Source: Naegleria gruberi (lineage: Eukaryota). Taken from it: a stretch of DNA of 64,000 nt. The notes under the pieces were generated by a model. The model was given only the letters and a program-made list of their open reading frames with translations. It was not told where the DNA came from and searched no databases. Below are positions 1,309-59,718 of the stretch, one piece after another (within the stretch, counting starts at the first letter, position 1; each line of letters starts with the position of its first letter). The DNA is taken from NCBI GenBank assembly GCA_000004985.1, contig GG738913.1, one strand, 5' to 3'. Made by a program: the position numbers and the translations under genes.

Positions 1309-4300
1309 ATGTTTGGACGTTTCTTTGGTAGTAAAAACAAGGCTGCATCAGCTGATGATGATATTTCTCAAGTTGAAACAACCACAACCACCACTACAAA
1401 TACAACACACCAACCAATGAAGAACAACAACAAGCAGTACACTAAAAAGGAGCCAAAGAATAGTGCTCCAAAGAAAATTGAATTATACGACAATGTAAAG
1501 ATAGTATCGGGAACAAGCATTCCAACAGGATTGGCTGCCAGTAGAGCTACTTGTATCAAGAAGACACCAATCACTGATAATATTCCTACATTCGAATCAA
1601 GTCCTGATTCTTTCATCCATGTACATATTGGAAAGGAATATTCTGACAAGGCTTCATCAGTTTTACCATTGGTGGCTCACAAAGTTCAATGTCACGTCAT
1701 GTATCCTATTGTTCAAGTCGTTTTCCACAATGACTTTTAGAAATACTATTGAAAATAGATCAATTGAAGGTGAATTAGTTCTTCCAATGCCTGAAACTGC
1801 CACGATGACTGGTTATGCAATGGAAGTTGATGGAAAACTCATTGATGCAGTTCCAGTTGAAAAGGAAAAGGCCAAGGAAGTTTTTGAAAGTGAAGTTAGA
1901 GCTGGAAATAAGGTTTCAATGGTTGAAAAGGTTGCACAATCCAATTGTTTCCGTACTCGTATTTATCCATTACCATACAATCAAGATAAGACAATTCAAG
2001 TCAAGTATCAATTAATGTTGAATGAGATTATCGAAACTCAAAATGAAAATGAAACTGGTACAATTAAGGGCACTGCTTGGTTCCCTGTTACTTATACAGA
2101 TTTCTCAGTATTAAGAGAATCCAACATTGAATTTACTTTGAATGAGACATCATTGCAAGGATATGAAACTAATTTTACAATGAAAACTTCAGGAGTTGAA
2201 GAAAAGACTATCTGGTCAAGTAAGAATGCAAGCAAGAGAGCTGCTTATTTCAATGTTACCAAGAGTGATTTATCTGACAAATTGATTGGTTTTGGTATTG
2301 AAATTACCAAACAGGCTGATTCAGTTAATAATATTTTACTTGCATCAGAAAATGGTTACTTTATGACCTCTATCCCAGTTCCATCTTTGACCGAAGAAAT
2401 GAGAAATATGTCTCGTATTGGAGACAAAATTCAAATTGTTTGGGATTCATCACTTTCACAATCTAATTGTCATGCAAAGAATTTACAATTATTCAAGGCA
2501 ATTTTGGAAGCTTTGAATCCAAAAGCAATTTCCTTCTCAACATTCAGTAATGCCATTGTAGATCAAAAGAATTTTTCATCCACTTCAGATGCTTTGAGTT
2601 ATGCTGAAAAGATTGTTTATGATGGTGGTTCTAACATGCTTGTTTTCGATCAAAATTTGATTGATGATAGTTTTGATTATTGCATTGCTTTTACTAATGG
2701 TGTTCACACAATTGGACATGAAATTACCCCATCATGCAGCTTTGAAAGACCAATTTACTTTGTCAACGCCTCATCTACTGTTAATATCAATCTCTTGAAG
2801 CACATCTCTACCAAGTCTGGTGGTGTTTACCTCAATGCCAACGAACTTTCACAAGATCAAATTTTGAATGCTATTGGTAAACCAGTCTTGTCATTTGTTG
2901 TTGCAGATTTCGAAGATTCTGATATGGAAGAAGTTTATCCAAACGAACCAGTTTCTTTGAAGGAAGGAGAAATTTTCAAATTATATGGTAAAATCAAAAA
3001 CTCTGGAAAGGAAACAGCTAAGGTTGCTGTATCTTTCAGATATGGTTCAAAGATTTATCACATTCAAGAACTTGATATTCCAACAAGTGTTAACAATGTT
3101 CCTGAAGAGGCTGCCATTCTTCCAACTTTGTGGGCTCAACAAAAGATTGACTCTCTCTCTGCATTCCCTCAACTTTTCAAGGATGATATTAAGAAGATTG
3201 GCCAAGAATTTAGGATTGTTACTGACAATACTTCCCTGATTGTTCTTGAAACTTTGAGTCAATATCAAAAACATGACATTGTTCCGCCAAAGACTCTCAC
3301 TGAAGTCTATAAACAATTCATGCAAGTAAAGACATCTGCACAAGAAGCTAAGGATAAACAAGAAAAGGAAAAGTTAGAAAGAATTATTAGTATGTGGAAG
3401 GAAAGAGTTAATTGGCATAAGACTGACTTTAAATTACCTGAAGAAAAGCCAGAAAAGGAAAAGAAAAAGTTGGCTGCAATGGATGACTGTATTTCTGAAT
3501 CTCTCTCTGTACAATCCTCTAGTTTGGATAGTTGTTGTAGATGTGAGGAGAGTAGAGAATGTTGCAGAGAATGTTGCAGACGTTCTTGTGCACCATCTCC
3601 AAGTTGTGCTAGAAGTTGTTGTTGTCGTTCTGCTAGTCCTTCTTTGAGTTGTTCAGATATCAGTTCAGGTCCACCACCAGCTTTTGGAAGTGCAGGTAGT
3701 CCACCACCTCCTTCTGCTAAGTCAGTAGCCTCTCAAGAAGAACCTAGTGTTGCTGGTACCATTAAGGTTAAAGCATGGACTCCAGATGCTGCTTATTGTA
3801 CTGCCATTAGTCAAGCTAAAGATCCATATGAAGAATATGTTAAACAAAGAGAAAGTTATAGAGATTCTCCAGCTTTCTATTTGGATGTTGCTGACTATTT
3901 CCTTTCATCAGTTAAGAATAAGGAAATTGGTGTGAGAATTCTTACCAACGTTTCAGAGCTTGAATTGGAAAATGTTCAACTTTATCGTATTGTTGGTTAT
4001 AGACTTGATCAAGCTGAAGAATTGGAATTGGCTGAATGGGTCTTTGAAAGAGTTAAGAGCATTAATGGATTTGAACCTCAATCATACAGAGATCTTGCTC
4101 TAGTTAAGGAAAGAATGGGAAAGCATGAAGAAGCTATGGAATTATTCAATAGAGTTATTGTTGGTAAATGGGATCTTCGTTTTGATGAAATTGAAATGAC
4201 CGTTGCTACAGAGATGAACCATCTTTTGCTTAACAATCCAGATTTACCAATCATTGATAAGAGATTGATTCACAAGTTTGACCTCGATATTCGTATTTCA

Positions 4301-4654
4301 ATGGCCTGGGACACTGATAATGTTGATATTGACTTGCACGTTCAAGAGCCAGGAAGACATGGTGAACATGCTTATTATGCTCACAATAGAACAAGAATGG
4401 GAGGTTATGTTTCCAGAGATTTCAGACAAGGATATGGTCCAGAAGAATACATGTTAAAGAAAGCTCAAAAAGGTGCTTACAAAGCTACAACAAATTATTT
4501 CAGTAACCATTCTCAGAGCTTGACAGGTGGCACAACCATTTTGTGTACCTTCTTTACAAATTATATGAGACCAAATGAACAAAGACAAATGTCAACCATT
4601 AGATTATCTTCACAAAAGCAAGACATTGTCGTTTGTGAAATTGATATTGCTTAA
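1309..4654 (+). CDS. VIT-domain + von Willebrand factor A protein with a Cys-rich insert and a TPR-like C-terminal region. The reading frame is broken by a 1-nt shift at a T4 run (1736-1739)
   Basis: ORF 1309..1740 ends ...LVAHKVQCHVMYPIVQVVFHNDF*. ORF 1619..4654 continues RNTIENRSIEGELVLPMPETATMTGYAMEV. Together they form one continuous VIT domain (the x.F.N...E..y.FPLP pattern). The vWA-like region (LVFDQNLIDDS...NGVHT) follows. The two frames differ by +1 at the run gacTTTTag. Confidence 0.6.
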
Positions 4655-4705: not shown

Positions 4706-5767
4706 TTAAAAGCATTTTCTATGTACTATTGAAGGTCCAATTTCATCATACTCTTTGCATGAAATCCACATTGGTTCAAACGATGATAGAGAAGATAACA
4801 GGCTACCTCCAAGCCAAACTGAATATTTTCTAAATGGTGGAGCCTCAACATTGATTTTCACATTTGATGGAGCCAATGCACTTAACTCTTTTTCCACTCG
4901 TTCTGACAATCCTGTAAACATTGTTGTTCCACCTGCTAAGATTATATTTGAAAACATATCCTTTCTAACATCCATGTCACATTTTCTAATAGAATTGAAA
5001 ACCTGTTCATGAATCCCAGAATGTGAATCAAGATTGGGATTGAATAATTCCTCTGTGCATTTGAATCGTTCACATCCAATGTTAATCAAGCTTCCATCTG
5101 GTAATTCATAAGAAACATCAGTCACTGCCTTTTCATTTTCCTGATCAAAATCCAATGCAACATAGCAAATATTATGCTTCATATCTGTCATGACATCTGT
5201 TGGATGCTCTGCAAAATATGGTATTTTACATCCAGCAAATGCTTGAACCAAATATTCAGTAATTTCCCTTCCAGCAAAATTCCAACTTGAAATGGCATGT
5301 GTCAAGGCATATCCTTCATAGACAGGAACAGCTCTCGACACACTCTCTCCCAAATCCAAAACAATTCCACTTGTCTTGCCAGATGCAAACAACGCCAACA
5401 CTCCTTGCATTGCCACATAAAAACTTGATATATTAAACTCCTCAAACACGATCTGTGTCATCCTCTCTCTATTACACTTTGGTTCCCTCACTGCTTCACT
5501 CATCAAGATTGGATGTAATTCTGGCCTGCATCAAACTAGTTCCATATCAGACATGTTGGTAATGACACAATGTTCAATTGGATATTTCAATGTACAGATA
5601 CCTCTCTTAGCAATGGCTTCATCACCAACTATAGTGGTGCTTGTTGATTTCTTGTGGTGGCCAACTAGGGTTGGAAAGATTGATGTCGGAGTGTTGTCTT
5701 GTTCGTTTGCTATTCCTACTTTCATAGTACAAGATCCGTTATCAATTATTATAGCTGTTTTGGTCAT
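4706..5767 (-). CDS. Actin-family protein (divergent actin or Arp1-like) with an in-frame TGA at 5531-5533
   Basis: The N-terminal ORF ([12 protein letters not shown]...[31 protein letters not shown]) and the C-terminal ORF ([32 protein letters not shown]...[17 protein letters not shown]...[13 protein letters not shown]) are in the same frame. A single TGA separates them. It aligns with the conserved Trp of the actin DMEKIW motif. The ATG is at 5765-5767. Confidence 0.65.
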
Positions 5768-5902: not shown

Positions 5903-5994
5903 ACCCAGTGTCAGGACTTGAACCTGAATTATGTGATTTGGACTTGTTGTTCAAGTCCCGTCACATTCACATGTCTTTCATTAGACTACACAGG
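5903..5994 (-). tRNA. tRNA-like element, possibly an intron-containing tRNA or a pseudo-tRNA
   Basis: The minus strand has a perfect T-arm (tcagg-TTCAAGT-cctga, B-box-like GGTTCAAGTCC). A 5-bp anticodon-type stem (tgtga/tcaca) encloses 30 nt containing an internal hairpin (ggacttg-aacaa-caagtcc). A D-arm-like gtct/agac stem is present. The acceptor stem is 7 bp with one T.T mismatch. A T5 run lies 7 nt downstream (Pol III terminator-like). The D-loop lacks the conserved GG. Confidence 0.25.
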
Positions 5995-6940
5995 GTTGAG
6001 TGGAATTGTTTTTTGGCCACACGTGATGTGTTGGCTGTGTTCAAGGATTTTGAATCAGATTTTTGGTTTCAATGAATTAACATTTTCCAAATTTAGTACC
6101 TTTCAAAGTTTGTTAAAAATCGGTGAGTAGCTAACCCATGTTGTCTGCAATTGTTTCTAAATGGATTTTTGTGCCTTAATAAAATCAGAGTTGTTTCTTA
6201 AGAAGAAACATTTTTAGAATTAAATGTAAAGCAGGAATGAAGAAATAATTTTGTTTACCCCGATTATTTTCTGACCACCATACGCCCCTAAATAGATTTC
6301 TACCCCTCCTCACCACCTCAAACTGTAATGGGTCGACCAAATTCAATAAATGAATAATTGGCAAATTCATCTCCTTGCACCCTCTGAACAGTAATTCATT
6401 TGTATTAATTTTCTTCCTCTTCATCAACATATTCTCCATCTTCTTCCTCTTCTTCATCAACATCTTTAACATTTAATTTTTCCAATTTCTTCCTCATCTT
6501 CCACTTCATCATCATTATTTTCCGCATTTCCAGTTTGCACAATATATTCTGTTAATTTAGGCACACCATAATTTTCATATCGCCCCATTTCTTACGATTT
6601 AGCAGTGCTTTGTTTGTTACTGAGTCTCCAAAGTTGTGGGAATACCAGATTCTCTAGCAAGTTGAGTGGTGAATAAACCAATGTCAATGTTATTTGGGTG
6701 AACCGAACCTCCCATAGTTTTTTCATCATTTAATTGTTTTAAAAAATTTGTCACTCCTTACCATTATTAAGCATTTTTCATCATCACACCATCAAAAATG
6801 TTGAACACTCACTAGTAATGTTCTTCTACCTGGTTTTATGTAGAAACCATCTAAAATTCACAACAGAGAACATGATATAGTTGTTCTTGAAGAATATTTT
6901 CTAATAGTTTATTTTTCTGCTCGGATTACAATTAAAAAAA

Positions 6941-9142
6941 ATGTCTTCACTAGTTACGAGGGCACAACTGTTTAATCCTTCTAGTGTTTTTGTTTCATCA
7001 AATAATGAAGTTTATATTGCTGATTTTTGTAATCATAGAATTAGAAAAATATTAGAAAATGGAAATATTGTAACAATTGCAGGAAATGGAAATTATGGAT
7101 TTAGTGGTGATAATGGTCCTGCAACAAATGCACAATTTAATTATCCTTGTAGTGTTTTTGTTTCATCAAAGAATGAAGTTTATATTACTGATTATAGCAA
7201 TCATAGAATTAGAAAAATATTAGAAAATGGAAATATTATAACAATTGCTGGAAATGGAACTGTTGGATTCAGTGGTGATAATGGTCCTGCAACAAATGCA
7301 CAACTTTATAATCCTTCTAGTGTTTTTGTTTCATCAAATAATGAAGTTTATATTGCTGATTTTTGTAATCATAGAATTAGAAAAATATTAGAAAATGGAA
7401 ATATTGTAACAATTGCAGGAAATGGAAATTATGGATTTAGTGGTGATAATGGTCCTGCAACAAATGCACAATTTAATTATCCTTGTAGTGTTTTTGTTTC
7501 ATCAAAGAATGAAGTTTATATTACTGATTATAGCAATCATAGAATTAGAAAAATATTAGAAAATGGAAATATTATAACAATTGCTGGAAATGGAACTGTT
7601 GGATTCAGTGGTGATAATGGTCCTGCAACAAATGCACAACTTTATAATCCTTCTAGTGTTTTTGTTTCATCGAATAATGAAGTTTATTTTACTGATCAAC
7701 ATAATAACAGAATTAGAAAAATATTAGAAAATGGAAATATTATAACAATTGCTGGAAATGGAAATTATGGATTTAGTGGTGATAATGGTCCTGCAACAAA
7801 TGCACAATTGTATAATCCTAATAGTGTTTTTGTTTCATCAAATAATGAAGTTTATATTACTGATTAAAGTAATCAAAGAATTAGAAAAATATTGGAAAAT
7901 GGAAATATTGTAACAATTGCAGGAAATGGAACTGCTGGATTCAGTGGTGATTCACCTTTTAATATTATAATGTATCCTCATATTGGAAATAAGTTATTAA
8001 CTGGAAATAGTAGCTTGTACTCCAAAATAGAATATAATTTGAAAAAACATTCAAGAGATCAATTATTTGGATTTCAAATTTATGGATTCATTCCACTCAT
8101 TGAAAAAATTTCACCAAAATTTAGTAATATTTTGAAGAATGAAAAGATGCTTTGTTTGATGAGTTCATCACAACAAGAAATTATTCAAAAATTAATTGAT
8201 TCTTTGCTGTATGATAAGAACAAGGTAAAGTTTAGCAAAGAAGAAGTGTTGGATGTTTTATTCATTTTGGGTTTATTTAAGAATGGTGAATTTATTGATT
8301 TGAAAAGATCATTGACAAGTGAATTTGTGAACTCATTCACATTAGAAAATCTTACTTTCAAATGGGAAACAATTGAAAATTTACTCAAAACTTGCAATGA
8401 GGAATTTGGTATTCAAAATTACATTCTCGATCAATTGAATAACCATTGCATTGAATATGCTGCTGTTCAAATGCAAACCAAAGAAGGAAACACTTTATTA
8501 TCGACTCTTCCAATAATTATGAGAAATGCTACTGCCATATTTCCAAAAATGATCATTGCTCAACCAACTGCAATTAATATTGAGGAAACAATTGAAAATG
8601 AACCACAAACAATTGAATCATTATATGGTGATATGAAAACAAGTGATGTAAAAATCAAAATGGGACAAAACAAATACTTATATTGTCACAAAACTGTATT
8701 GAGTTCATCAAGTACATTGTTTAATGCATTATTTGACAGTGGATCTTGTTTCAGTGATTTGAGTGATGATGGAATATTCACACCTGACGAATCAGAAGAT
8801 TTGGAATTATTGGAAATTGTGATCAAATATTGTTATAGAATTTCAATTGACAAAATTGATGCTGTTAAAATTATTGGATTACTTGATATGGCAATGAAAC
8901 ATGAAATTCAATATCTAATCAATTATTGCAAGAATAACTTTACTCTATCCATTGATAATTACTTTGCTATGCTTGAAGTTTGTGAAAATTATTTTGATTT
9001 ACAACTATTTGAGCAATTTTTGAGAGAGATTCTCAAGTTTAGCATTGTCAACAGAAAACAACTCTTCATAGATCAAAATAGAATTTCCAAATTACCTGAA
9101 AAATTTTGGCAAGAAATCTTAAAGCTTTCACAGGACTTTTGA
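6941..9142 (+). CDS. NHL-repeat protein with a C-terminal BTB/POZ-containing region. An in-frame TAA sits at 7865-7867
   Basis: ORFs 6941..7867 and 7892..9142 are in the same frame and separated by one TAA. That codon lies inside an NHL repeat, where the paralogous repeats have TAT (Tyr). The downstream ORF has no ATG at its listed start; it is TTG. Six or more NHL-type repeats (NHRIRKILENGNI.TIAGNG..GFSGDNGPATNAQ) are followed by a BTB-like segment (VKIKMGQNKYLYCHKTVLSSSSTLFNALFD). Confidence 0.6.
6974..7981 (+). repeat. Tandem coding repeat. Two perfectly identical 336-bp units (6974-7309, 7310-7645) are followed by a diverged third unit
   Basis: Direct comparison of the nucleotide strings shows them identical. 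Each unit encodes two NHL-like repeats of about 56 aa. Confidence 0.9.
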
Positions 9143-10546: not shown

Positions 10547-13368
10547 TTATTCATATCTCTTAATTTCCAGAGATTCAGTATTATATTGTTTAGTTTTGCT
10601 TTTGCCACCACTTTTACTTGCTGATGATGAAGATGGTGGTGGTGTGAATTTATCGTACTCAATGAAACACTTCTCATTCCTGTAAATCTCAATAATCTTC
10701 TTCCAATGTTCATCAATACTCAATAACTCTGCATTGCCTACAATAACCATGAGTGATATGGCTCTGGAAATGGCCACGTTCAATCTCTTTGGATTTTGTA
10801 GGAAACCAAGCTTGAATTTGGAATCTTGTTCCAATCCTTCAGTGCTACTCGATCTGACAGTTGTCAAAAGGATGACTCTTCTTTCTTGACCTTGGAATTG
10901 TTCAGTAGTTCCAACAAAGATTTTTTTGTACAATGGATTGGTGGATTTTCTCAACAATTTTTTGATTTCTTCTGCTTGTTTTCTGTATGGAGTAATGATG
11001 CCAATTTCATGTTCAGGATTATATTGGTTGTGTTTGCTGTTGAAAACCAATCCAGACTTTACGATTTCATCCAATTTATCCATTAAAACTTGAATTTCTT
11101 TGGAATTATACCATGAAGGTGAGTCATTATCACGTTTCTCATCACCCTTAACGTGGTAAAACAACATTGGAACTTGTGGATTCTCCAAAATTGGATTGTT
11201 AATGAAGAGATTTGCTGAATTAATATCAGTACATGATGAAATTAAGGAATTATTATAAAATACAGAGCTATAGACTTGCATTATTTTAGGGTGAGCTCTG
11301 TATGATTGTTGTAATTGAGTAATAGAACAGCAATTATCTCCTAACTTGACTAAATGTTCCAAGAGGGATTCGCCCAATCCATATTCAACAGCAAGAGGAG
11401 ATCTTACAATTGGTCCAAGTTGTTTTGGATCACCTGCCAACACAACAACTGTATTGTCACCTTTCAAAGAGAATGGTATTAATGCTTCTGGAATAACAGA
11501 TTCACCAGATTCATCAATAATAATATGAGAAAAGTGTCCTGGCTTAACTCCCTTACTGTACAAATAACCAGATGAAGTGCATGTTGAAATAATTACATCA
11601 TATTTGGCGATTTCATGTAATTCTGGAATTTCAAAACCTTGATCAAGTTTGTTTGAGAATTTAATAATCCACCTCTTTGTGAATGTATTTGGATCTCTTT
11701 GAACACTATTCATTCTCATCATTTTCACTAATGGATTCAAGTTACTATCGACCAGTCTTTCCACAATAATATCAGCTGCTTGATTGGAAGGAGCACATAT
11801 GAGAATCTTGTGATTTGGATCTTGTTTCATAATTTCCAAGATACATTGAGATACTACGAATGTTTTACCTGTTCCAGGAGGTCCAAAAACTATTTTGATA
11901 TTAGTAAGAATCTAGCACCAGAAAATACATTCCTGAAATAAGGAGAGTCACACATTGAGAGAGCTCTATGCATCAACTTGATTGGAGTTCTTGAGAATCT
12001 GAAACTGATATCAACCTTTTCATACTTTTCTACATTTTCATGGAATGAAACAACTACATGATCTAAATTGACATAATGAATGAAACCTTTGAAAAGAACA
12101 GTTCTTGCCTTTGTTTCGTGATGAGGTCTACATAAAATCAAATCTCCTCTCAATACGGATGGTCTCTTTTCAGCAAGACCTGCACAATAGACTTTGTACA
12201 ATCTAGAATTAGGAGCATGTCTGTATCTTTCCTCATAGCTTTCCAATTTAATTCCTGACAAGTCGTATTGCTTAATGTCATAAATCATTTGGGCCTCTTC
12301 AACATGTAATAATGTTCCTAATAAATTATGAGTGTATGTGTACATGTCATTAGTAGAAACATGTTCATTTGGTTCCTGTTGAGTAACCTTTGTTCCTTGT
12401 TTCAATTCACCAGACAATTCATTCTTGAGTTGAGCATTCATTGCATGTTTTTCCAATATTTTCTTATTATCCAAAACATTCTTAATCTTATCAGGAAGTT
12501 CATAAGCTTCCAATGGTTTTTGGAATTTCATTCCATCCCCCAAAGGTCTCTTTCCAGATTTGACATTATTAAATCTCCAAACATGTCTATATTTTCTCTT
12601 CTTCAAATTTGGTAATTTGTAAATTCTGTCTGGATCATAATGAAGAGTGAAAATCTTCTTTACAGAACCACCCTCAAGAGTTTCCTTTTCAAGGGTCTGA
12701 TAGAAAAATAAAGTGGGATGTAAAATTTGATAAACCAACATTTGAGGACTCAATTGTGAATAATTCAACTTGAATCTTTTGTGAACCATTTTGAGAAGTT
12801 TCTTGGTATCCATCTTTCTTGGCACATCCAAAGTAGATGTGACAAAATGAATAATATCTCTCTTTCTATTCTCATCCAAAAGGAGACCATTCATACTTGT
12901 GCCATTATTATTATTATTATTATTATTGGACACAGATGGTGGTGGAGTTGATTCTGATTGTTGTGGAGTTGCTTGTTTCTTTGCTCTTTTCCTACGATTT
13001 GAATTTTTAGATGTTGTTTTACCTGTTGTGGTGGTGCCTGCAGAAGTCTGCTTGTGAGCAACATTTGATGATGCAGATGCATGTTGCACAACAACATTCA
13101 ATGCAGCTTTGAATGTTGTTGATGCATTAGCATTCACCATGCTCTTCTTAATATCGGCCTTCTTTTTACGAGTGCGCTTTGGCTGTGGAGGAGCCGTGTT
13201 GGCTAAATTTAAAGTAGTATCAGCCACCACTACATGTTGGTGATGGTCATCTGAAATAGTTGAAGTGTTATTTGCTGGTTTTCTTGTGCGTCTTGTTCTT
13301 CTTGTGCCTGCTTGTTGTGGGTAGTTGTTGTTTGGTGTTGGGTTGGGAGGTGGAATGGTGGTGGACAT
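10547..13368 (-). CDS. MOV10/Armitage/UPF1-like SF1 RNA helicase. The reading frame is broken by a 1-nt shift near 11850-11890
   Basis: The helicase core ORF has motif Ia (ILICAPSNQAADII), DExx (HIIIDESGE), VLAGDPKQLGPIV, IGIITPYRKQ and VGTTEQFQGQERRVILLTTVRS. Walker A (GPPGTGKT) is encoded just upstream of its listed start, in the same frame. That frame overlaps the end of the N-terminal ORF (...FSGARFLLISK*). One extra A in the run tcAAAAtag would fuse them into ...LLISKIVFGPPGTGKT.... The N-terminal part carries an NLS-like KRTRKKK and a poly-N run. Confidence 0.65.
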
Positions 13369-15519: not shown

Positions 15520-16422
15520 ATGTCATCCACCAAAGTTCTCGTTGTAGGTGCCACTGGTCGTTTAGGATCTTTGATTACCTCTGCCTTATTAAACAAACCA
15601 ACAGTTCAAGTTTCTGCATTGATCAGAAAGGGAAGCGAAACTAAAGCTGAACAATTGAAAGAAAAGGGAGTTCAATTGATTAGTGGAGCATTGAATGATT
15701 CTGTCGAGGATTTACAACAAGCATGTCAAAATGTTGATGTTATTATTAGTGCTGTTATTGGTTCTGAAGACACCATTATGGATGGTCAACTAAGATTGTT
15801 GGAAGCTGCCAAGAAGGCTGGTGTTAAACGTTTCATTCCTTCTGATTATTCTGCTGATTATTTAAGAGCTTCCATTGGTGATCATGACCACTTTGATATG
15901 AGAAAGCAAGTTGCTGAACAAGTGAAACAGTCAGGAATTGGTTACACTATCTTTTTGAATGGAGTTTTCATGGAAACATTCTTTGGACCATTCTTGAACA
16001 TAATTGACACCAAGAATCACAAGATTACTTATTATGGATCTGCTGATACTCTTGTTGATACAACTACTTACGAAGATGCTGCCAAGTATGTTGTCGAGGC
16101 TGCTCTTGATCCAGAACAATTGAACAAGATTGTTTCTGTTTCTGGTGATCGTGTCTCCTATACTCAACTAGCTCAACAAATTGAACAAGTCACTGGACAT
16201 AAGATTACATTGGAAAGAAAAGGAAGTGTTGAGGATCTTAAGAAACTCATTGAAACTACCAAGAATACCACTCATAACGTTTGGGCCTACATTGGAATGC
16301 AATATCAATACGCTCTTCACAGTGGAATTTGTGAGTTGAAGAATATTCAAAATAGCAAGTATCCAAATGTTCACCCAACTTCTATCAAGCAATGGCTTGA
16401 AAAGAATAAGAACATTTTTTAA
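15520..16422 (+). CDS. NmrA-like / isoflavone-reductase-family NAD(P)-binding protein
   Basis: An N-terminal Rossmann motif (VLVVGATGRLGS) and the overall 300-aa atypical SDR layout. Confidence 0.7.
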   Translation: MSSTKVLVVGATGRLGSLITSALLNKPTVQVSALIRKGSETKAEQLKEKGVQLISGALNDSVEDLQQACQNVDVIISAVIGSEDTIMDGQLRLLEAAKKAGVKRFIPSDYSADYLRASIGDHDHFDMRKQVAEQVKQSGIGYTIFLNGVFMETFFGPFLNIIDTKNHKITYYGSADTLVDTTTYEDAAKYVVEAALDPEQLNKIVSVSGDRVSYTQLAQQIEQVTGHKITLERKGSVEDLKKLIETTKNTTHNVWAYIGMQYQYALHSGICELKNIQNSKYPNVHPTSIKQWLEKNKNIF

Positions 16423-27471: not shown

Positions 27472-27724
27472 NNNNNNNNNNNNNNNNNNNNNNNNNNNNN
27501 NNNNNNNNNNNNNNNNNNNNNNNNNNNNNNNNNNNNNNNNNNNNNNNNNNNNNNNNNNNNNNNNNNNNNNNNNNNNNNNNNNNNNNNNNNNNNNNNNNNN
27601 NNNNNNNNNNNNNNNNNNNNNNNNNNNNNNNNNNNNNNNNNNNNNNNNNNNNNNNNNNNNNNNNNNNNNNNNNNNNNNNNNNNNNNNNNNNNNNNNNNNN
27701 NNNNNNNNNNNNNNNNNNNNNNNN
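27472..27724. other. Assembly gap (253 N)
   Basis: A run of N characters. ORF-track entries with poly-X translations across it are artifacts. Confidence 1.
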
Positions 27725-57801: not shown

Positions 57802-58090
57802 ATATTTTCACAGCACTTCTCTTCTTAGTGTATTGCCAGAGTTTTAGATGTTGGAACCTTTCTCCAATGGATCAAATGTTGTTGATGTTATACATCATTA
57901 TCTTTTTTTTGCAACTCACATTTACTCCTTGCTTTCAATTCATTAGAAATTGAGACACAGATCACCAACCATTAACACAACATGTTTTACCTTACCACAG
58001 AGTTGCCAAATTTTATTTCATCATGGCAAAGAAAAGGAATGAAAGGGCTCTTGCTTATTTGAAGAATAAACTATCTGAGTATGTCCCTTT

Positions 58091-59718
58091 TTATTTACCT
58101 CTTCTTCCAGAAGAAGGTGGACGTTTGCTGGATGATGATCTAGAGGATGAAGATCTACCAGATGATGATTTAGAAGATCTGCTTCCAGATCTACCTGAGC
58201 TTGGGCTAGATCTGTTTCCAGATGATCTACTTCCAGATCTGTTTCCAGAAGATTTACTTCCAGATGATCTACCTGAGCTTGATCTACTTCCAGATGATCT
58301 GGATTTTGAGGATGAAGAACCACTCGATCTTCTTTGAGAAGAAGATCTTCCAGAGTTGTTTCTAGTATTTCTTCCTGATTGGTTGTTAGATCTCTTTTGA
58401 GTTGGCTTAGAATAGGTCTTTCTGGAGAGTCCAGTCTTGAATCCAGAGTAAGCTTTTCTAAATTCGTTAGCATTCTTCAACTTTGCAACAGTACCCATCT
58501 TCTTCCAATTCTTACCAGCAGTAGAAACTGTCTTTCTAATAGCACTCATTACTTGCTTTCTATTCTTAACAAATTTAGTGGCCTTTGTGAGTGAGGTCTT
58601 GAGTGCCTTGTAAGAGGTTGGCAATTTAATGTTTCTAACCATTCCCAATGCCTTCAAACCTCCCTTCAAACTGAGAGCTCCAGAAACAACATTTAAAGTT
58701 CTTCTTACAGCTTGGAATGTCTTGGATTTAACAACAGGGGCAATCTTTGCAGCAACCTTGGTTTCGATTGGCTTTAACTTGGTTTGAGAAAATGTGTCTA
58801 CGGAAGAACCCCATTTTTTGGCAGTTTCTGAAACACCTTTCAAACCCCATTTATCTAATTTGCTAGCAACTGGACCTGACAAGAATTTACCGACCTTTGA
58901 AATTTTGTCAGAGTAAGTTCCAATACCATCAACTATGTTCATTCCTAGTGAGGCAATAGAGATAGCTTGACCAAGCCAAAGAGATTTAGCTCCAGATGAT
59001 GACTCGAATGAAACAGGGCCAGTAACACCTTCTGGTGTTGGTTGTTGTTGTTGAGCTGGCTCTTCCTTGAGTGGTTGATTTTCATTGGCTTTTGAAATAT
59101 CAGTAAGTGATGATTGCAAGATATCAACTGATGGATGTTCTGACTTTACTGTGAAATCCTTTACAATAGCCAAGAGTTGTTGTTTCAACTCGTTGGATTC
59201 TGTTGTTTGGACTTGATCAAGTTTATCAGCAATCTATATCAAAATAACATGAAACATGCATGATGATTAGTATGTGAACAGACTATTCCACAAAAACTAT
59301 TACTTACTCCTTTGATCTTGTTAGCAAACTCAAGATATGTTTCAGCAACTTCTCTTTCTTCCTTTGATGAGAGAGCTTCTTTGAAACTAGCAACTACATT
59401 CTTTGTGGTATCATCAACTGGGAATGCTTCAGCAGACCTCTTCTTTCTATGTGGGTTGATATTTACATTGACCACAATACTAATTCCTTCATTTCCTCCT
59501 CTACTTTGCAAAGCATAGGCTCTTCTATCCTGAGCTTGAACAGTCACAATACAAGATAAGATTGTCAATGCCAAAAGCACTCCAAACAATGTGATAGAAG
59601 CACTAATTTTCATTATTTTTTTCTGAAGATGATTGTTGACCCCTGTCAGTTGATAACACACTACCCATTTCATCATCAACTGAATCGTTTGATTACAAAA
59701 ATATGTTCGACCGCACAA
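58091..59718 (-). CDS. Secreted hypothetical protein with a Ser/Arg/Gly-rich C-terminal tail, 2 exons
   Basis: Exons are 59718..59308 and 59233..58091. The 74-nt intron at 59234..59307 (GTAAGT...GATATAG) joins ...EFANKIKG to IADKLDQVQTTESNELKQQLLAIVKDF in frame. A signal peptide is MKISASITLFGVLLALTILSCIVTVQA. The C-terminus is a roughly 100-aa run of (S/G/R/N/K) repeats. Confidence 0.5.

Follow-up and report, generated by a model that had tools for sequence, protein, structure and literature searches.

A perfect two-blade repeat and an in-frame stop in an NHL-BTB gene of Naegleria gruberi: probable out-of-register recombination between propeller blades

Among the genes of the heterolobosean amoeba Naegleria gruberi is one that joins an NHL-repeat propeller to a C-terminal BTB domain, and the copy on contig GG738913.1 (GenBank assembly GCA_000004985.1) contains a 336-bp tandem repeat whose two units are identical at every position. 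The gene lies at 6941-9142 of the 64,000-nucleotide stretch analyzed here, referred to below as the window, and is disrupted by a stop codon within its own reading frame. We consider it likely that the repeat is genuine and reflects a very recent out-of-register recombination between the blade units of this disrupted gene. The locus provides a clear case, with a junction that can be read, of near-identical blades recombining in the wrong register while their number is kept, and it also marks a spot in the 2010 Sanger reference that deserves a long-read check.

The gene runs in one frame over its full length, and its principal parts are as follows.

6941-9142, plus strand: NHL-helical-BTB gene, one frame, 733 codons, a single TAA
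6941-7864, plus strand: D2VZ16/NAEGRDRAFT_53386, 308 amino acids, exact match
7865-7867, plus strand: in-frame TAA at blade position 22 of the sixth repeat unit (U6), a position that is hypervariable in the family and is Gln in the intact paralogue P0002
7970-9139, plus strand: D2VZ17/NAEGRDRAFT_74322, 390 amino acids, exact match
7970-9142, plus strand: C-terminal module of a short linker, a helical domain and a BTB/POZ domain (BTB at about 8636-8938), without frameshift or stop

Two open reading frames (ORFs), 6941-7867 and 7892-9142, share this frame and are parted by the lone TAA, which falls in blade 6. Read through, they specify a product of 733 amino acids in which six NHL blades are followed by a linker, a helical region and, at the C-terminus, a BTB domain. 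An earlier reading of the sequence, made from the letters and a list of ORFs, had placed the repeat inside an NHL-repeat gene, and profile searches bear this out: Pfam NHL scores 120.9 bits (cut-off 20) over five stretches, and TEN_NHL scores 120.7 bits (cut-off 27.1). What this sequence-only reading overlooked is the TAA at 7865-7867, because of which the locus must be seen as a disrupted copy and not as a working gene caught in the act of expanding. The BTB domain, recognized by Pfam at 38.6 bits (cut-off 20.5) over residues 566-666 of the read-through protein, lies 3' of the TAA and so is not joined to the propeller in the window copy. The gene shows no further damage 3' of the stop, and the TAA, if real, is also very recent. 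The window copy is probably a very young pseudogene or null allele.

Reassignment of TAA to an amino acid was considered as an explanation and rejected, since the window holds long ORFs in the standard code whose translations agree exactly with annotated proteins; indeed, nine of its ten long ORFs are letter for letter the same as predicted N. gruberi proteins (D2VZ21 to D2VZ38). The reference annotation splits the gene in two, and both models are found as exact matches on a 236,320-bp scaffold. Paralogues open with the same start as the window gene, MSSLA/VT.AQL. For the annotation, then, NAEGRDRAFT_53386 and NAEGRDRAFT_74322 are the halves of one disrupted NHL-BTB gene, the intact counterpart of which is NAEGRDRAFT_76287.

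Two identical units of 336 bp had been reported earlier, and a direct comparison of 6974-7309 with 7310-7645 agrees, giving no mismatch in 336 positions. The exact run at this offset is somewhat longer than had been noted, with 6973-7335 identical to 7309-7671 over 363 bases. Tandem Repeats Finder describes a single array at 6962-7951, with a period of either 168 (5.9 copies, 89% matches) or 336 (2.9 copies, 95% matches), and a repeat search recovers six copies at an exact 168-base spacing. The units are coding and in frame, and they can be laid out as follows.

6962-7969, plus strand: array of six 168-bp units, each encoding one 56-amino-acid NHL blade, in the order A-B-A'-B-C-D
6973-7671, plus strand: perfectly periodic tract of 699 bases (2.08 units of 336 bp), including both 336-bp units
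6962-7129, plus strand: U1, type A
7130-7297, plus strand: U2, type B
7298-7465, plus strand: U3, an A body with a C-type start
7466-7633, plus strand: U4, type B
7634-7801, plus strand: U5, type C
7802-7969, plus strand: U6, type D, the closing blade, ending GDSPFNII
7298-7335, plus strand: left recombination junction, read directly from the unit sequences

At the DNA level U2 and U4 are 100% identical and U1 and U3 98.8% identical, against 81-93% for the remaining pairs of units, a level that would give about 25-60 differences per 336 bases. Because the other pairs are only 81-93% identical, the absence of any difference in 336 bases lies far beyond chance or the background of the array. Synonymous divergence among the non-identical units amounts to a dS of only 0.10-0.18, and dN/dS between units ranges from 0.55 to 0.93 (Nei-Gojobori), values that give no demonstration of positive selection between them. 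Neither a further copy of the repeat unit, such as might have served as a conversion donor, nor any other member of the family was found within the 64-kb window. The sole assembly gap in the window, a run of 253 Ns at 27472-27724, is 20 kb away.

The left junction of the presumed exchange is found at the start of the third unit. U3 opens with 11 bases, GCACAACTTTA (encoding AQLY), that are those of U5 and depart from U1 in two places, reading CTT TAT as in U5 where U1 has CTG TTT; one of the two differences is synonymous. From 7309 onward U3 and the sequence following it are identical to U1 and its following sequence for 363 bases, and the exchange point lies inside 7309-7335, where U1, U3 and U5 are all the same.

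A comparison with the closest relatives of the gene, made throughout at the protein level, shows that this arrangement of blades is peculiar to the window copy. The intact paralogue P0002 (D2W4F6, NAEGRDRAFT_76287), on a 23,652-bp scaffold, has six blades labelled here A-B-C-X-E-F, and its C-terminal part is 99.1% identical to that of the window gene (334 of 337 amino acids). The VIT gene that lies upstream of the NHL gene in the window likewise has a 98%-identical copy on this same 23,652-bp scaffold, and the two regions are therefore syntenic; they represent either two haplotypes or a very recent segmental duplicate. Blade by blade, the window protein relates to P0002 in the following manner.

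Window blade 1: identical to P0002 blade 1 (A)
Window blades 2 and 4: P0002 blade 2 (B), with two residues differing
Window blade 3: P0002 blade 1 (A) with one residue off, a Tyr at position 4 as in P0002 blades 3 and 4
Window blade 5: P0002 blade 3 (C), first half 20/21, second half 27/28
Window blade 6: first half P0002 blade 4 (X), 20/21; second half P0002 blade 6 (F), 28/28

The order of the window array is thus A, B, (C-start/A), B, C, (X/F), and its blade 6 is a chimera of P0002 blades 4 and 6 in which the switch falls at the TAA codon. A third close copy, P0137 (D2W344, 618 amino acids, on a 189,881-bp scaffold), has the same C-terminal sequence as P0002. In all three close copies the A and B types are found at positions 1-2; only the window copy has them at positions 3-4 as well. 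Blades 5 and 6 are 55 amino acids long both in P0002 and in the more distant P0003, and no 55-residue blade is present in the window protein; since the shorter blades are common to P0002 and P0003, the window order is taken to be the derived one. The P0137 gene model jumps within blades (from GNGT to HNQRIRK, and from AQLN to HNQRIRK), as if predicted introns had skipped over defects; the array of P0137, like that of the window, may carry a disruption, possibly close to the same blade position.

The event that we propose is a homologous recombination within the gene, with the pairing shifted by two blades (336 bp), and it could have taken the form of an unequal crossover or of an out-of-register gene conversion. 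Six 56-amino-acid blades about 80-90% identical in DNA would offer long homology in the wrong register. Blades 1-4 would have been written over positions 3-6, shifting the register by two blades and leaving the count at six, and one conversion tract of about 530-560 bp would be enough to yield the end product; a two-blade deletion followed by a two-blade duplication would arrive at the same result. The right junction would then fall inside codon 22 of blade 6, where TA(T) joined to (C)AA would read TAA. Residue 22 of P0002 is Tyr in blade 4 and Gln in blade 6, and in the window's own units Tyr-22 is encoded by TAT and Gln-22 by CAA, which makes such a hybrid codon possible. On these sequence comparisons it is conceivable, if somewhat doubtful, that the same recombination event made the stop codon. 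The TAA would truncate the protein ahead of its last blade and the BTB domain, and the window copy is probably a by-product of the process that diversifies the binding surface of the family.

As for timing, the duplicated pair shows no difference whereas the window copy and P0002 differ at about 1% of their C-terminal residues, which suggests that the duplication is younger than the split between these two copies. A very recent duplication was one of the possibilities raised earlier, and it is strengthened by the readable junction at the 5' end of U3 and by a syntenic copy with another blade order.

Several points weigh against this account. A plain C-to-T change of CAA, or an error in base calling, could equally account for the TAA, and both the stop and the copy number depend on one Sanger consensus. 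The blade-6 chimera is imperfect: within the half that is otherwise like blade 4, position 7 carries the Asn of P0002 blade 6. P0002, which is compared as protein only, is not the direct ancestor and has homogenized its own blades 5 and 6. Moreover, P0137 is a third near-identical copy, making the picture more complex than one of two alleles. A perfect tract of 699 bases is about the length of a single Sanger read, and at least three copies of the gene have C-terminal parts at least 99% identical, so the assembler could have collapsed, expanded or mis-joined reads from the array, or mixed the three near-identical copies; the A-B-A-B order, and perhaps the TAA as well, would then not be present in the organism. 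A mis-join out of register would have the appearance of a true unequal exchange, and there are odd gene models elsewhere in the family, namely P0001 and P0137. The N. gruberi NEG-M reference (40.9 Mb, 35% GC) was indeed Sanger sequenced, from an organism considered to be a heterozygous diploid (PMC9928731), and Pereira and Lupas warn of exactly such miscounts in highly repetitive propellers (PMC9218822). All the same, we hold an artifact of this kind to be improbable. There is no gap or run of Ns within 20 kb, and the array keeps its frame and numbers exactly six blades, the count of intact members; this six-blade norm of the family favors two copies of the 336-bp unit. Overlaps with about 10% mismatches are normally rejected by overlap assemblers, on our reasoning, and an out-of-register overlap here would carry about that many outside short conserved stretches. 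In addition, blades 1-2 of the window differ from those of P0002 by two residues, which argues that the duplicated copy was not borrowed from the P0002 locus.

The repeat and the stop might also be products of separate events, in which case an unequal crossover would have duplicated two blades, turning A-B-C-D into A-B-A'-B-C-D in an array that had earlier lost two, and the TAA would have arisen later and independently as a C-to-T nonsense mutation, or would be a sequencing error. One unequal crossover joining a C-type to an A-type blade fits the left junction equally well, CAA to TAA is a single transition at a codon where P0002 has Gln, and undamaged sequence 3' of the stop is to be expected for any very recent stop. 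This scenario nevertheless requires three events instead of one or two, passes through a four-bladed intermediate of which the members inspected offer no convincing intact gene, and leaves to chance the coincidence of the stop with the switch of parentage in blade 6; we regard it as rather unlikely. Far less probable still is that the gene remains functional, with continuous gene conversion or selection maintaining the identity of blades 1-2 and 3-4, and with read-through, or the splicing out of a short intron, getting past the TAA, or else with the 308- and 390-residue products acting separately. In its favor, each half has a protein annotation, the C-terminal one is undamaged, and homogenization is common in the family. 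Yet the exact matches of standard-code ORFs to proteins speak against reassignment, and the stop stands in sequence that is coding in every other blade, such that an intron there would remove two strands of blade 6. The 308-residue product would be a propeller lacking most of its closing blade and separated from the BTB domain, and the other members of the family are all single polypeptides. Recombination out of register within the gene thus remains the account that we prefer for the repeat itself.

The behavior of blades in the wider family provides a setting for such an event. N. gruberi has a set of paralogues with identical architecture, and at least one is present in N. lovaniensis. The C-terminal module is rare, being detected in 25 proteins at E <=1e-10 among 1.84 billion representative proteins, and NHL is combined with BTB in six of the ten more distant proteins with this module that were checked. 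Nearly every intact family member has exactly six blades, the last of which ends in GDSPF and not in GDNGPATN. Among the members inspected, a block of four blades occurs only in the anomalous model P0001, and P0092 has three. The P0001 model (N. gruberi, 928 amino acids, on a 665,159-bp scaffold) consists of four blades and a partial C-terminal domain followed by a partial array and a full domain, an arrangement pointing to either a larger internal duplication or an error of assembly or gene modelling there.

To compare the blades themselves, all were excised from family members with a profile. Blades within one protein carry protein-specific residues in common, such as GNGQQGY..GDNGLAVN in P0031 and RKIMKNGMITTIAGNG..GYNGDNQLATN in all seven blades of the N. 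lovaniensis protein P0052, and the nearest neighbor of a blade belongs to the same protein for 27 of 43 blades. Perfect or close duplicates recur: blade 4 of P0052 equals its blade 5, blades 2-3 of P0005 resemble its blades 4-5 with blade 3 equal to blade 5, and blade 5 of P0002 resembles its blade 6. Blades at the same position in different proteins are no more alike than blades at any position, and with the exception of the three closest copies this rules out positional orthology of blades between paralogues. To judge from the sequences, the likeness of blades within a gene and the recurring duplicates are the mark of concerted evolution by intragenic recombination, a known phenomenon. Active gene conversion had been named earlier as one way to account for the identical units, and the homogenization and perfect duplicates seen across the family lend it substance.

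Variation among the blades is concentrated at positions 4, 5, 7, 22, 23, 44 and 45, which map to the D-to-A and B-to-C connections when the strands of the P0002 structural model are used as a guide. In the standard propeller topology it is the D-A and B-C connections that make up the top face. The differences among the window units fall at these same positions, with the TAA at position 22, and comprise 13 nonsynonymous and 2 synonymous changes there, a count for positions that were picked from the same data.

The structure was predicted with AlphaFold from a family alignment for the intact, near-identical P0002 and not for the window protein, which is truncated in blade 6. In the model, residues 8-335 form 24 strands arranged as six four-stranded blades, with a predicted local distance difference test (pLDDT) score mostly above 90, and the propeller is followed by a disordered linker, a helical domain and the BTB domain. 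A Foldseek search with this model returns the teneurin-like protein 9ifo_A (E 1.8e-30, 48% identity), NHLRC2 (6g7w, TM-score 0.84 on the target) and SOQ1 (7djj, 0.83), along with the designed Pizza6 proteins. The sequence search also matches 9ifo_A, at 431 bits, with the 56-residue blade subtype in common. Teneurin-type NHL propellers (PF25021; 9ifo, NHLRC2, SOQ1) share this blade subtype and the six-bladed fold with the Naegleria proteins but are extracellular, lumenal or Trx-linked and lack BTB, and we know of no near-perfect internal nucleotide repeats among them. A set of bacterial NHL proteins (P0004-P0120, 'TIGR03437 family', with Bryobacteraceae among the sources) is about 39-57% identical over the whole Naegleria array. 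The likeness of these arrays and of 9ifo to the Naegleria array could reflect gene transfer or a convergence of consensus-like repeats.

Highly repetitive beta-propellers have been defined as those with at least two consecutive blades at a median pairwise identity above 60% (PMC9218822), and the window array falls within this definition, its blades averaging 84% identity over the first 50 positions (minimum 78%, maximum 100%). The propellers surveyed by Pereira and Lupas in 2022 resemble it in showing identity at the nucleotide level and in being disrupted, in some cases, by stop codons lying in frame; the same authors caution that assemblies may miscount identical blades (PMC9218822). That said, there are differences. 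The main text of their survey makes no mention of NHL or Naegleria, and 84% of its eukaryotic examples are fungal; it includes one two-bladed repetition unit only, whereas a two-blade register is seen here both in the window and in P0005. Their propellers grow from a single blade, while here the count stays at six and the content is shuffled.

The closest mechanistic analogue is found in the WD40 repeats with high internal conservation (HIC) of the Podospora anserina HNWD, het-d and het-e genes, which are 80-100% identical and evolve by unequal crossover and concerted evolution (bioRxiv 10.1101/2025.01.13.632504). These repeats vary at a few hypervariable positions and are shuffled among alleles and paralogues, some carry stops, and long reads are needed to resolve them (bioRxiv 10.1101/2025.01.13.632504). 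The window units, at 81-100% identity in DNA, lie within the same range for repeats of one gene. However, the repeat is a 56-residue NHL blade in an amoeba and not a 42-residue WD40 blade, repeat number is polymorphic in Podospora and constant here, and diversifying selection is not demonstrated here, with dN/dS between units as given above. Pfam finds no NACHT or NB-ARC domain in the window gene, where the partner domain is BTB; since the Naegleria genes lack such a NOD domain, the likeness is one of analogy and not of membership.

The BTB domain invites a different comparison. Members of the BTB-BACK-Kelch (KLHL) family and of the rapidly evolving MATH-BTB families serve as substrate adaptors of Cullin-3 ubiquitin ligases. 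Like them, the Naegleria proteins unite a BTB domain and a recognition domain in one polypeptide and have undergone lineage-specific duplication. The domain order is reversed relative to KLHL, with the propeller N-terminal and the BTB domain C-terminal, and the propeller is of the NHL and not the Kelch type. Neither BACK nor Kelch was detected in the window gene by Pfam at E up to 0.01. For these reasons the gene is not filed as KLHL and only a functional analogy is drawn, one in which the BTB domain suggests a role as a Cullin-3 adaptor.

To a specialist in repeat proteins the duplication as such is an unsurprising, fresh example of a known phenomenon. What it points to is a small, lineage-restricted and undescribed NHL-BTB family that combines concerted evolution with variable surface loops, a combination known to date chiefly from WD40 proteins of fungi and bacteria. 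No paper linking Naegleria with NHL repeats, and no relevant one on Naegleria, NHL and BTB together, was found among the papers searched. An exact 33-base pattern and a C-terminal-domain profile had no match in metagenome contigs, and a search for contigs encoding the window ORFs, P0002, P0003 or P0005 found none. By analogy with the systems above, one may speculate, though we think it unlikely to prove correct, that the Naegleria NHL-BTB genes constitute an undescribed, recombination-driven repertoire of ubiquitin-ligase substrate adaptors. If so, their top-face loops (positions 4-7, 22-23 and 44-45) would be diversified by blade shuffling in registers of one and of two blades while selection holds the number at six, and the family would be an amoebal counterpart of the fungal HIC-repeat NLRs, serving to recognize non-self, for instance prey, intracellular bacteria or giant viruses. 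The window duplication, with a stop made at its junction, would then be a casualty of the mechanism caught in the act.

The remainder of the window is occupied by genes that include actin, Hsp70, a MOV10-like helicase, Sec23 and Sel1-repeat proteins. A bacterial or viral source for this DNA was considered and rejected, given its actin, Hsp70, MOV10 and Sec23 genes and the exact agreement of its ORFs with N. gruberi proteins. The VIT gene upstream of the NHL gene, at 1619-4654, encodes a VIT + DUF2135 protein whose exact ORF translation is absent from the protein collection, meaning that the gene model differs; outside Heterolobosea its relatives are mostly bacterial (Flavobacteriia, about 30% identity). 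The actin-family ORF at 4706-5506 on the minus strand, 265 amino acids long, covers profile positions 99-410 only, with the N-terminal part missing; it may be a divergent or partial actin, or its 5' part may contain an intron. Between this ORF and the NHL gene lies a tRNA at 5903-5995, also on the minus strand, that scores 43.9 bits over the full Rfam model and is unreported by ARAGORN; with its 93 bases it probably contains an intron.

Downstream, a MOV10/UPF1-like helicase on the minus strand is divided between two ORFs, one (10547-11839) with the beta-barrel and helical part and the other (11890-13368) with AAA_11 and AAA_12, the split representing either a short intron or a disruption. The NmrA-like gene at 15520-16422 (D2VZ21) has a relative, D2VV61, at 90% identity or above on a 309,005-bp scaffold, and with this pair near-identical copies on separate scaffolds are not confined to the NHL locus. 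A scan of the window for bacterial promoters and terminators, irrelevant for a eukaryote, gave results at the level of shuffled sequence. At 58131-58300, finally, imperfect tandem repeats of 15 and 27 bases lie in overlapping minus-strand ORFs (58021-59188) and are probably coding low-complexity sequence.

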